Origin: a virus
Virus record (IMG/VR): IMGVR_UViG_3300017991_000034
Span: 1-39,918 of that record
DNA: 39,918 nt
Reading direction: 5' to 3' (one strand)
In this document: positions 16,259 to 18,494 of the stretch, one piece after another
How the letters are laid out: the number at the start of each line of letters is the position of its first letter
Numbering within the stretch: the stretch's first letter is position 1
Translations under genes and position numbers: made by a program
Notes under the pieces: generated by a model
What the model was told of the DNA's origin: nothing
Databases searched by the model: none
What the model saw: the letters and a program-made list of their open reading frames with translations, nothing else

Positions 16259-18454
16259 CTATGCTAATGTAGCTCTTAAATTGATAACCCATAAGTCATT
16301 GGTAATTCTAGGAACTTCCGCAAACTTATATCCGACTGAACAATTAAGAGCAAGAGGTCCATCATATATAGGTGGCCTATAGATAAAGCTTGCGCTATAT
16401 CCATCTTGTTCTATTGATGCATAAGCTTCCATACCAACACAGAAAATGTTATACACATCTTCTCCAAGGTTAGAAGCTGCTGCTGTATAAGATCCAATAG
16501 AGGATACCAAGAAACGTAAGTTTCCAATTGCACCCCATTCAGACCTTAAAGCATTCATAGGAGCTGGATATTGATTCTTTTGAATAAATCCAGCAACTGC
16601 TTCTAAGTTACCTGTCAGTTGAGTAGAACCGAGAGCAAAGTATGCATCACGTACTGGAGCTGTTCCAAACTTATCTTCACCTTCAATGTTATCCATAATT
16701 GTATAAGCATCGTTCGATAATAAAGTTCGTACAACTTCGTCAACATCGGCCCTCGTTATTTCTGTAGGGTTATCACCATTAACACCACTAGTACAGTTAA
16801 TAAACCCAGCTGTTGCTGCAAGCATATCACGTGTAAGTTGATCTTCTGTTTGCCTTTGTTACTCCTCAAAGAGGGGATATGTCATTTCTGCATATCTCAG
16901 GAACTTTCGTCTTCCTGCTCGGACTATCGCATCCCTTTCGGGTCTCTTCGTTTAGTCTCTCACGGTGGCCTACGCCTTCCGCCCTGTCACCATAGTTTTA
17001 ACCTTAGGCTTCCAAGTCCATTAGAAGAGATTTATACTCCGCCAAATTAACGGAGTGATACACCCAAACGCTTAGCTGCTTCATTTAAAACAGGATCTTG
17101 ATTCTGTAAAGTTCGATCTGTTACTTCTTTTGACTACTTTATATTTCAAAAGTAGCGGTGAGTCTTGTTATTCCTCACTCCCTATATTTCTATAGGGACC
17201 CGACTGTCGCTTCACCATTTGGTGTCCACTCGCCTCAGTCTGTCAGCGTGATATTTATTTCATTTTTAATATCTTCGCCCCTGTCACCCTCGACTTTACG
17301 TTAGGGCTTCCAAGTCAATCAGAGCGGATTTAAAGCAGGCAATTGCTTTACAAAATACAAGAAATTTCAAAGAACATTTAACGGCAGTACATATATACGC
17401 CTTTTTTATTTACCTGCTCGTTGATCTGTAAGTAGGTCGTTATTCAGATCAACTAATACGGCACCTACGCTATACCGTAGAAACTTATCTTGGCGTCTAT
17501 GTCAATCGCTGTGAGTGTTTGCGCTGGTGGAGTTACACCACTATTTCCTAGTGGAACCATTGCTGTATTAAGAGCGTTATACCTTCTCATACGAAGAGTT
17601 GTGCCGCCGTTCCTTGGCATAGTTTTCTTCATTGAGGGTATTTTGTGAATCATGTTGGGAGTTGGTACTGACAAAAGCTTTAAACTAAAACTTTGCTGAC
17701 TTTCTGTTACTTCAGGGTTACCTTCTACCCTTACTGACCATTATTAATGGCGGTTGGTCTTGTTATTCCCAACTCTTATAGTTTCCTATAAGATCGGACT
17801 ATCGCTTACGCTCTCGCGTTTTGAGGGCTTAGTCTCTGCGCCTACTTTATTACCATTGAACTCACGCATTTTTACATACATGTCTTCTCGGTAATTTAGC
17901 TCGTCTTTAGATAAACCTCTGTATCCTTGATTTGGTATTTCTTGTAAATGCCTACAAAAATCCAGTAAATGATAAGCTCTTGCTTTTTTTATCTTCAAAT
18001 AAGGAAGAACTTTTTTTAAAAATTCTGCAGTCTTAAATTTATTACGTAAATACCAATGATAAATAGGCTTACTATTAGGTCTATCTTTACGAGCGCCATT
18101 AAGCGTAATATTTCCATATTTTAAAATATCTTTTATAAAAGATACTGCTTCCAATTCTATCATAGCTATTTTAACACTAGGAATATAAGTAAAAGACCAT
18201 TGCTTAACATTTTTAGGAAATTTTAATGCTCGTACTGTAGTCCCATTACTAGTTTTTCTTTTGTGCTTTTCTATCATAAAACATCCATCAGCATCCATTA
18301 TTCCAGCAATATACGCCCAATGCGTTTGGCTCTGGTTATCATGCATTGATTCTAAATCAACGTTTAGACTTTCCAAGTAATCACCTCAAATTTTATACCG
18401 GCTCAACTATTCGTTAACCGGTGCAGGCAGTACCGTTGTTGTAGTTATAGGCAT
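16259..18454 (-). CDS. Major capsid protein (HK97-fold, N4-gp56-like), split gene with four exons: 18454..18417, 17738..17474, 17133..17050, 16852..16259. The spliced CDS is 981 nt (326 aa).
   Basis: SD AAGGAGG precedes the ATG at 18454. The exon peptides are MPITTTTVLPAP(V), SVRVEGNPEVTESQQSFSLKLLSVPTPNMIHKIPSMKKTMPRNGGTTLRMRRYNALNTAMVPLGNSGVTPPAQTLTAIDIDAKISFYG, SKEVTDRTLQNQDPVLNEAAKRLGVSLR and QTEDQLTRDMLAATAGF...RATLA. Joined, they read as one MCP. The ORFs at 17465..17674 and 16259..16825 are fragments of it. Confidence 0.8.
16853..17049 (-). mobile_element. Group I intron 3 in the MCP gene (ORF-less, ~197 nt)
   Basis: On the minus strand, P1 is CUCCGU|UAAUUUG-GCGGAG with a U.G wobble at the 5' splice site. 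P10 pairs UUUG with the exon start CAAA. The core contains ACUUGGAAGCCUAAGG. The P7 halves are GAGAGACUAAACG (plus 16951..16959) and GCGAUAGUCC (plus 16921..16930). The intron ends ...AAAGG|CAAACA. Confidence 0.75.
17134..17473 (-). mobile_element. Group I intron 2 in the MCP gene (ORF-less, ~340 nt)
   Basis: P1 is UACGGU|AUAGCGUAGGU-GCCGUA with a U.G wobble. The core contains ACUUGGAAGCCCUAACG. The P7 halves are ACAGACUGAGG (plus 17233..17244) and GCGACAGUCG (plus 17201..17210). The terminal hairpin CUACUUU...AAAGUAG ends in G just before exon 3. Confidence 0.75.
17739..18416 (-). mobile_element. Group I intron 1 in the MCP gene, carrying a LAGLIDADG homing endonuclease ORF (~678 nt)
   Basis: P1 is ACCGGU|UAACGAAUAGUUGA-GCCGGU with a U.G wobble. 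The core contains ACUUGGAAAGUCUAAACG. The P7 halves are CAGAGACUAAGCC (plus 17826..17838) and GCGAUAGUCC (plus 17796..17805). The 3' domain is homologous to intron 2. The 3' splice site among the adjacent Gs (17739/17738) was chosen to keep the reading frame. Confidence 0.7.
17786..18376 (-). CDS. Intron-encoded LAGLIDADG homing endonuclease (196 aa, TTG start)
   Basis: YIAGIMDADGCFMI is a LAGLIDADG motif. The TTG start is preceded by GAGGTGA-N4. The ORF begins inside the conserved ACUUGGAA core element, and its 3' end overlaps the P7 region. Confidence 0.8.
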   Translation of the reverse strand: MESLNVDLESMHDNQSQTHWAYIAGIMDADGCFMIEKHKRKTSNGTTVRALKFPKNVKQWSFTYIPSVKIAMIELEAVSFIKDILKYGNITLNGARKDRPNSKPIYHWYLRNKFKTAEFLKKVLPYLKIKKARAYHLLDFCRHLQEIPNQGYRGLSKDELNYREDMYVKMREFNGNKVGAETKPSKRESVSDSPIL

Positions 18455-18494
18455 TTTAAGCCTCCTTAATAATATATTAGATAAATACTATTAA

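Follow-up and report, generated by a model that had tools for sequence, protein, structure and literature searches.

Three compact group I introns and a core-less 36-nt mini-intron, probably dependent on a neighbouring ribozyme, in the major capsid gene of an uncultivated phage

The major capsid gene of the uncultivated phage represented by IMG/VR record IMGVR_UViG_3300017991_000034, all 39,918 nucleotides of which were analysed and are referred to here as the window, lies on the minus strand at positions 18454-16259 and is interrupted by four intervening sequences of 717, 36, 298 and 197 nt (Table 1). Each of the four begins after a U and ends in G. The three longer ones have the features of group I introns and are numbered introns 1 to 3, and the 36-nt element, which we call the mini-intron, separates exon 2 from a 26-nt micro-exon that is followed by intron 2. 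A preliminary description of this DNA, made from the letters alone, had proposed an N4-gp56-type major capsid gene split by group I introns, with no single open reading frame (ORF) encoding the protein. The absence of such a frame is evident from the ORF list for this interval, and the identity of the gene is supported by the Pfam family PF25209 and by colinearity with homologues. Its three group I introns also stand, as does its observation that the introns end in G, but the number of interruptions rises to four, the 26-nt exon had been missed, and two of the three 3' splice sites had been misplaced.

The exon map was corrected by comparison with intron-less relatives. A search with the 326-residue spliced protein of the preliminary description returned 2565 homologues, the best of which are 315-316 residues long, are 84-90% identical in alignment, carry PF25209 and bear the name 'N4-gp56 family major capsid protein'; the 326-residue version itself matches PF25209 with 31.2 bits (cut-off 27). 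The five exons of 38, 226, 26, 64 and 594 nt sum to 948 nt, and the assembled coding sequence specifies 315 residues that are colinear with 315-residue intron-less homologues. The 981-nt, 326-residue product proposed earlier is therefore 11 residues too long overall. Alignment to homologues agrees with the first exon (18454..18417) and the last (16852..16259) as originally drawn, and the Shine-Dalgarno sequence AAGGAGG that was said to precede exon 1 is at 18461..18467. For exon 2, the end at 17474 is retained but the start at 17738 adds 13 residues (SVRVEGNPEVTES) that occur in no homologue, the true start being 17699. Similarly, exon 3 does end at 17050, but its proposed start at 17133 adds SKEVTDR, the translated form of the conserved 3' tail of intron 2, and the true start is 17113. 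Junctions 17738 and 17133 are thus ruled out by the homologue alignment and by the conserved intron tails (...GUAACAGA..G). Boundaries 18417, 17699/17698 and 17475/17474 were taken from DNA alignment to the closest intron-less gene (L001). The micro-exon is found 36 nt 3' of the end of exon 2 in the same frame; its reading TYLQINEQV is identical at 9/9 residues to homologue P0003, and 37 contigs conserve it, the changes among them being synonymous. Its two ends are both in phase.

Two 39,936-bp contigs, assembled independently from two samples (ERZ27256796:k141_1017395 and ERZ27256773:k141_1862467), are identical to the window but differ in where they start, which suggests that the genome is complete and either circularly permuted or terminally redundant. 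A near-identical fragment is present in a third sample. No second capsid gene lies within the 39,918 nt, so the intact copy that the preliminary description had asked about is not to be found in the window, and because the interrupted gene is the only capsid gene of a complete genome, the phage needs it to work. Megablast of the capsid region against GenBank phages gave no match, and a protein search of the same phages gave only homologues of about 25% identity, so that no cultured relative was found.

Table 1. Positions in the window of the capsid gene, its intervening sequences and their RNA elements
Feature	Position	Strand	Description
Shine-Dalgarno AAGGAGG	18461..18467	minus	5' of capsid start codon; read directly from the sequence
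Exon 1	18417..18454	minus	38 nt; MPITTTTVLPAP and first two bases of Val13; from protein/DNA alignment to intron-less homologues
Intron 1	17700..18416	minus	717 nt; group I; carries LAGLIDADG gene
Exon 2	17474..17699	minus	226 nt; third base of Val13 to Gly88 (...AKISFYG)
Mini-intron	17438..17473	minus	36 nt; no catalytic core
Micro-exon	17412..17437	minus	26 nt; TYLQINEQ and first two bases of Val97
Intron 2	17114..17411	minus	298 nt; group I; proposed helper
Exon 3 (numbering of the preliminary description)	17050..17113	minus	64 nt; third base of Val97 to Arg118 (TLQNQDPVLNEAAKRLGVSLR)
Intron 3	16853..17049	minus	197 nt; group I
Exon 4 (same numbering; fifth coding piece)	16259..16852	minus	594 nt including stop; QTEDQLTRDML...RATLA*
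Intron 1 P1	18422-18417 / 18402-18397	minus	ACCGGU / GCCGGU; U.G at junction
Intron 1 P10 guide	18407-18403	minus	GUUGA; pairs with exon 2 start UCAGC
Intron 1 core	P3 18390-18384/17826-17820; P4-J4/5-P5 18378-18364; P7 17836-17830/17801-17796	minus	
Intron 1 3' part	P8 17819-17808; P9 17795-17773	minus	end ...GUAACAGAAAG
Mini-intron P1 (P1a)	17479-17474 / 17462-17457	minus	exon UACGGU / GCCGUA; U.G at junction
Mini-intron P10 guide (P10a)	17468-17463 / 17437-17432	minus	GUAGGU / micro-exon start ACCUAC; guide directly 5' of GCCGUA
Anchor helix	17453-17445 / 17428-17420	minus	mini-intron GUUGAUCUG / micro-exon CAGAUCAAC; 9 bp
Intron 2 P1 (P1b)	17419-17412 / 17340-17333	minus	exon strand GAGCAGGU / guide GCCUGCUU; U.G at junction
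Intron 2 P10 (P10b)	17355-17346 / 17111-17102	minus	UUUUGUAAAG / exon 3 CUUUACAGAA; 10 bp
Intron 2 core	P3 17327-17322/17231-17226; P4-P5 17316-17301; P7 17242-17236/17206-17201	minus	P7 CAGACUG/CAGUCG
Intron 2 3' part	P8 17224-17213; P9 17200-17178	minus	end ...GUAACAGAUCG
Intron 3 P1	17056-17050; guide region 17046-17036	minus	ACUCCGU / GCGGAGU; U.G at junction
Intron 3 P3 and P4-P5	P3 17030-17024/16949-16943; P4-P5 17018-17002	minus	11-nt-receptor-like CCUAAG..UAUGG
Intron 3 P7 and 3' part	P7 16959-16953/16926-16921; P8 16942-16933; P9 16917-16898	minus	end ...GUAACAAAGG
LAGLIDADG ORF	17786..18346	minus	likely start ATG 18346; mechanical ORF start TTG 18376

Inspection of introns 1-3 gives the same set of elements in each, namely P1, a P10 guide (the P10 of intron 3 being UUUG/CAAA), a UAUAAAU-like J1/3, P3, P4-J4/5-P5, P6, P7, P3', P8 as a small hairpin, P9, P9.1 and P9.2, followed by a common tail, ..GUAACA(G)A..G. 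The shared element ACUUGGAA..CUAA to which the preliminary description had drawn attention is real and corresponds to P4-J4/5-P5, although it is one base shorter in intron 3. The complementary, R/S-like P7 halves also proved real, being GACUA/UAGUC with a compensated variant, GACUG/CAGUC, in intron 2. Two of the three P1 hairpins assigned earlier (ACCGGU/GCCGGU and CUCCGU/GCGGAG) hold, whereas UACGGU/GCCGUA is not the P1 of the 298-nt intron and belongs to the 36-nt element. When IMG/VR was scanned for the P4-P5 motif and 60 compact introns from many insertion sites were aligned, P3 was found to be 96.7% paired with covariation at 7/7 pairs, P6 100% paired (3/4 pairs covary) and P8 97.8% paired (3/3 pairs covary). 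P7 is 99.4% paired, two of its pairs showing AU/GC/UA exchange, and it crosses P3 to form the group I pseudoknot. Of the 60 members, 59 have the G-binding G-C pair in P7 (columns 145/214); a bulged A or C separates it from the neighbouring pair, which covaries AU/GC/UA. The core covariation score is 0.461 compared with 0.180 for shuffled alignments, none of 500 shuffles scoring as high, and partners slid out of register reach at most 0.136. P1 was judged intron by intron, being only 48% paired in the alignment, where its loops differ in length. The minimum-free-energy fold of intron 3 yields P1, P3-P6, P8 and P9-P9.2. The insertion sites are also shared, with a homologous intron at the intron 1 site in L075 and L076, occupation of the intron 2 site in many IMG/VR contigs, and occupation of the intron 3 site in L084, L097, L110, L126, L139, L165, L175 and L185. 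No family introns beyond the three were found in the window by a family HMM search. Judged by these comparisons, introns 1-3 are complete group I ribozymes of one compact family that lacks P2, and they should self-excise by two guanosine-dependent transesterifications.

The hairpins that follow P9 (17772-17754, 17177-17159 and 16896-16873) differ among the three introns. Introns 1 and 2 share an 11-nt loop, GAAUAACAAGA, on stems that differ by compensatory changes (UUGG/CCAA versus UGAG/CUCA); intron 3 has CAGAAAUGA instead, as in an intron of Brochothrix phage A9, and other family members have a third loop, CCGAAGAG. These loop types are probably alternative tertiary-contact modules.

The mini-intron has a complete set of group I splice-site signals, comprising a P1 with U.G at the junction, a P10 and a terminal G (17438). 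It cannot be translated through because it contains the in-frame stop codons TAG, TAG and TGA. The P3-P9 core is absent, and between 3 and about 10 bases are left once P1, P10 and the anchor strand are accounted for; because P3 to P9 are lacking, the mini-intron is not an autonomous group I intron and cannot catalyse splicing, although it appears to behave as a group I substrate. A pattern scan, together with the contigs that had already been retrieved, provided 56 distinct versions of 28-41 nt, which show no preference for multiples of three and all of which (56/56) end in G. Small interruptions occur nowhere else in the capsid gene among 87 loci, being confined to 88|89. Full-length introns are found at this same site in L110, L252 and L257, and they share their 5' end (..AGGUGCCGUA) with the mini-intron, which on this evidence appears to derive from such an intron by internal deletion. 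The arrangement differs from a twintron in that an in-phase coding exon, of 26 nt here and of 47 or about 86 nt elsewhere, lies between the mini-intron and the full intron. Across the mini-intron junction the spliced capsid protein would read ISFYGTYLQINEQV, and the corresponding virion peptide would be ISFYGTYLQINEQVTLQNQDPVLNEAAK.

Covariation was scored on the 36 versions with the commonest configuration, reduced to fixed columns. The P10 pair that faces the third base of the Thr89 codon is GC in 18 versions, AU in 7, CG in 6 and UA in 5, and is unpaired in none. The anchor helix, formed by the 3' half of the mini-intron and codons 92-94, is 94% paired, and six of its pairs have changed on both sides. 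Overall, the mini-intron alignment scores 0.329 compared with 0.094 when shuffled, with no score as high in 500 shuffles.

The mini-intron occurs in three configurations that differ in the neighbouring full intron. In type A, represented by 37 versions including that of the window, the downstream exon is 26 nt long and the next full intron is at 97|98; in type B (13 versions compared) the exon has 47 nt and the intron is at 104|105, and in type C (5 versions) the exon has about 86 nt and the intron is at 116|117. Whatever the configuration, the mini-intron uses its 3' half to pair not with the closest exon sequence but with the exon bases directly 5' of the P1 strand of the next full intron. 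In type A, 8 nt separate the end of the anchor helix from the next 5' splice site, and in types B and C the best helix (8-13 bp) stops 7-9 nt short of it in 19/19 cases. For type B, 115/117 cells of the helix are paired; shuffled tails give 75 +/- 2.7 and reach no more than 84 in 1000 shuffles. Compensatory changes are seen at 4/9 positions, all of them synonymous codon sites. In L203 the type B target sequence is retained but the intron is missing from that site, and the anchor pairs beside the type C intron instead. A core of the family type is located 39-106 nt downstream in 49 of the 55 mini-introns that could be assessed, the other six having divergent cores recognised by eye. A metagenome scan aimed at mini-introns followed by an uninterrupted exon returned three contigs only, all of type C.

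The exon strand CAGAUCAAC-GAGCAGGU runs without a break in the window: the nine bases at its start pair with the mini-intron and the eight at its end with the intron 2 guide GCCUGCUU. At the nick between the two complementary strands, J1/3 of intron 2 leaves for P3 and a 3-nt linker arrives from the P1 of the mini-intron; because J1/3 and the linker share this nick, the mini-intron P1 hangs from the same pivot as the P1 of its neighbour. We consider it probable, on the strength of these sequence comparisons, that the mini-intron is non-autonomous and is spliced by the ribozyme of the neighbouring intron. With less assurance, but still on balance, we favour a more specific version, in which a natural core-less intron would present its P1, P10 guide and terminal G, by means of the anchor, to the nearest downstream ribozyme and would be spliced first, the anchor having been re-aimed at three helper sites over evolution. 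From the anatomy of the mini-intron, its covariation and its association with a neighbouring intron, we infer the following chemistry and order of events. The capsid gene would be transcribed as a precursor with four intervening sequences, and the core of the neighbour would dock the mini-intron P1 first. Guanosine attack at 17474|17473 would then cleave the 5' splice site of the mini-intron, after which the core would bind its last G and exon 2 would be ligated to the micro-exon at 17438|17437 under the guidance of P10. Finally, the core would dock its own P1 and splice itself out. Group I cores are able to recognise P1 duplexes that are not covalently continuous with them. Moreover, engineered Tetrahymena spliceozymes remove core-less introns in trans (PMC4094466, PMC4509937).

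Several points weigh against this proposal. We infer the splicing of all four sequences from comparison, and the data do not tell whether the neighbour acts in cis or any of the three related cores acts in trans. No P9.0-like pairing was identified for the terminal G of the mini-intron, which lies 5' of the core. The ends of the mini-intron can each be shifted by one base with Gly-Thr kept, and the junction was chosen by group I rules. In addition, the retrieval patterns fixed TACGGT, GTGCCGTA and AC at the exon start, which makes P1 and two P10 pairs invariant by construction; L106, found by another route, has GCUGUA and keeps P1 through a G.U pair. The contigs with mini-introns are mutually related, and their counts do not represent independent events. 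Lastly, the covariance-model check suggested in the preliminary description fails at the Rfam gathering score. RF00028 finds nothing at that score in the whole window and nothing at E<=10 in a 2.6-kb region; introns 1 and 2 give nothing (intron 2 was also searched alone), and the sole match is to intron 3 searched alone, which is full-length (model positions 1-253) and in the same register as the manual assignment, with 15.8 bits and E 0.061. In a control, however, the T4 td and nrdB introns (L202, phage T4 137955-145112) scored 40.3 and 35.7 bits against the gathering score of 50. Because these introns also fall short, the failure reflects the sensitivity of the model and not the absence of introns; default Rfam annotation misses even classical phage group I introns.

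The strongest competing explanation keeps group I chemistry for the removal of the 36 nt but assigns it, in trans, to any core of the family (introns 1, 2 or 3, or excised copies), so that the neighbour has no special role. Three closely related cores are present on the same precursor, and group I cores are known to accept, in trans, both P1 duplexes and introns without a core (PMC4094466). We nevertheless regard this as unlikely, given that it leaves unexplained why the anchor abuts the P1 of the nearest downstream intron in three configurations, why it is re-targeted when the intron site changes, and why a full intron is found within about 90 nt of every mini-intron.

A less probable alternative dispenses with splicing at this site and has ribosomes hop over the 36 nt. 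The precedent is T4 gene 60, in which a 50-nt coding gap that is not removed from the mRNA is bypassed, a process that needs matching take-off and landing Gly codons. Like that gap, the mini-intron is a stretch of tens of bases with stop codons and a hairpin in an essential phage gene. It starts within the hairpin, a stop codon follows shortly on the last sense codon, and Tyr codons (UAC before the gap, UAY after it) might act as points of take-off and landing. Take-off would be from GGU, but no version (0/56) has GGN as the final triplet of the gap, and there is no landing Gly before Thr89; thus, unlike gene 60, the capsid gene offers no matching Gly codon, and its gap carries group I splice-site signatures. 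A hop from Tyr87 to Tyr90 would delete Gly88-Thr89-Tyr90; among homologues Gly88 never varies, and the conservation of Thr89 and Tyr90 is at least 90%. Codon 89 remains ACN with the third base alone varying, a pattern that fits a translated Thr codon and so argues against such a hop. Nor does bypassing account for the invariant terminal G, the P10 covariation, or the 5'-end homology to full introns at the same site.

More doubtful still is a view of the mini-intron as a self-splicing group I remnant, reduced to a minimum and dependent only on flanking RNA to fold, in the manner of the 56-81-nt rRNA introns of Phialophora, even though one of these is reported to splice in vitro with long flanks (PMC3160393), because 28-41 nt leave no room for the P7/G-binding helix that the fungal introns retain. 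The reading given in the preliminary description, in which a single 340-nt intron spans 17473-17134 and the TYLQINEQV stretch is part of its P1/P2 region, has very little to recommend it now. It is true that the UACGGU/GCCGUA hairpin with its U.G is real and that a G precedes 17133. This junction, however, replaces nine residues conserved in homologues (TY(V/L/I)Q(L/I)NEQV in all nine aligned) with SKEVTDR, making the protein two residues shorter here, and SKEVTDR comes from translating the intron tail GUCAAAAGAAGUAACAGAUCG, an RNA segment conserved in introns at other sites, which in L181 contains a stop in the same frame. Furthermore, the micro-exon fits the reading frame on either side and changes as a coding sequence does, and junctions 17412|17411 and 17114|17113 are served by a separate P1 and a 10-bp P10 that belong to intron 2. 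Assembly artefacts or a dead gene, which metagenomic origin might bring to mind, are just as hard to credit in view of the identical 39,936-bp contigs from two samples and the near-identical fragment from a third, the status of this gene as the sole capsid gene, and the retention of its architecture with compensatory changes in dozens of independent contigs.

Two of the full introns that neighbour mini-introns have further peculiarities. The P1 loop of intron 2 is unusually long (65 nt), and two segments of it (17375-17367 and 17355-17346) are complementary to the first 20 nt of exon 3 (17111-17094). One of these pairings, GUUCUUUGA / UCAAGAUC, has one bulge and one mismatch and, together with UUUUGUAAAG/CUUUACAGAA, makes an extended two-part P10, perhaps a safeguard against exon skipping. 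Most type A neighbours of mini-introns keep the motif (G)AUCUUUGAAAU...UUUUGUAAG, but L090, with the same intron and no mini-intron, lacks it. The full intron at 116|117 in type C (L305-L307, L216, L225, L253 and L286) has a divergent P4 region, ..CCUGAAUACCUGGAAA.., that is missed by the family HMM, and appears to carry a long insert.

Intron 1 also contains a LAGLIDADG ORF, which matches Pfam PF00961 with 27.8 bits (cut-off 23.1, E 5e-6) and has an orthologue with an equivalent ATG start within the same-site intron of L075; the homologous intron of L076 carries the ORF as well. A homing endonuclease of this type would be expected to make intron 1 mobile. The C-terminal 20 or so codons of the ORF (17846-17786) are read from the ribozyme core (P7, P3', P8, P7' and the start of P9), and its UAG stop codon lies within the P9 stem; the L075 orthologous intron has the same overlap with the core. 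A separate feature just upstream of the capsid start codon is a 21-nt direct repeat, CGTAT(T/A)GGATCTCG(CT/TC)AATCC, present on the minus strand at 18574-18554 and 18540-18520, 34 nt apart; the window has no further copy (0.01 expected by chance). For the late/structural operon the repeat may represent a promoter or a site bound by a regulatory protein.

Interruption is common in parts of this capsid family. Retrieved contigs, compared by tblastn, have interruptions after residues 13, 52, 79, 88, 97, 104/105, 117/118, 144, 170, 181, 190, 227, 261, 269, 274 and others. Among the IMG/VR contigs L083-L300 a single intron family occupies at least 20 interruption sites, and a gene may be cut into as many as five coding pieces, as in L187 and L104. 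Of the 80 most similar IMG/VR genes, by contrast, 77 have no interruption. Where a capsid gene is interrupted, gene callers list its parts as separate small ORFs.

The essential structural gene of a small phage thus contains three ribozymes of a family that standard Rfam screening misses, and the intron load of uncultivated phages is probably underestimated, with capsid genes of this kind being mis-called as fragments. Group I introns are defined by their own catalyst, and a mini-intron that has shed it and yet persists in dozens of lineages would, if true, change how these elements are thought about. Should the mini-intron indeed rely on its neighbour as a helper, it would represent a new way for an intron to survive, an intron parasitic on an intron, and a natural counterpart of the engineered spliceozyme. 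It would also mean that ribozyme cores serve more than one substrate in cis in nature, opening a route for intron reduction, and would provide a simple natural system in which to study P1 docking and splice-site choice as well as a template for compact ribozyme-dependent gene switches. We found no description of a helper-dependent or core-less group I intron in phages in the searchable literature.

Phage genes with several group I introns have precedents in Twort orf142, which has three introns (Landthaler and Shub 1999, as cited in PMC11878797), and in the DNA polymerase and terminase genes of Bastillevirinae (PMC11878797). Going by the account of them cited there, the likeness lies in a single phage gene holding two or three group I introns, some with homing-endonuclease genes, and in short exons between introns with an attendant risk of exon skipping. 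As far as that account extends, the present case differs in that the host gene is the major capsid gene of an uncultivated phage of about 40 kb, the introns belong to a compact P2-less family that is almost invisible to Rfam, the capsid family has at least 20 interruption sites, and a fourth, core-less element is present. The only distant blastn match to intron 3 is a 45-nt one to the 3' end of the ribonucleotide reductase intron of Brochothrix phage A9 (NC_015253, just upstream of gp128), with which it shares the 3' domain ..CAGAAAUGA..CCCUC..GAGGAGUAACAAAUUG and R/S-like P7 strands. Unlike the introns described here, the A9 intron is longer, resides in a different gene of a Herelleviridae phage, and is not matched by the family core HMM.

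For a group I intron as small as the mini-intron, the nearest precedent is provided by the degenerate introns of fungal rRNA (Phialophora, Porpidia and Arthonia), which are 56-81 nt long and keep P1, P7, P10 and a pairing with the 3' exon termed 'PM' (PMC3160393). The two groups are alike in being very short, in having P1 and P10, in pairing with the 3' exon ('PM' being comparable to the anchor helix), and in probably descending from a full intron at the same site that lost its interior; flanking RNA is thought to help the fungal ones. The fungal introns, however, have a P7-like helix and at least 56 nt, are located in rRNA, and in one case have a terminal U, whereas the phage mini-introns, about half as large at 28-41 nt, have no P7, always end in G, interrupt a protein-coding gene, and aim their exon pairing at the P1 of a neighbour. 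In its proposed chemistry the mini-intron resembles the substrates of spliceozymes, in that a group I core would excise a core-less sequence by means of P1- and P10-type pairings with the terminal G supplied by the substrate. Spliceozymes are artificial, act in trans and carry the guide in the ribozyme, while the mini-intron is natural, carries its own guide, and would be tethered by its anchor to a ribozyme that apparently acts in cis.

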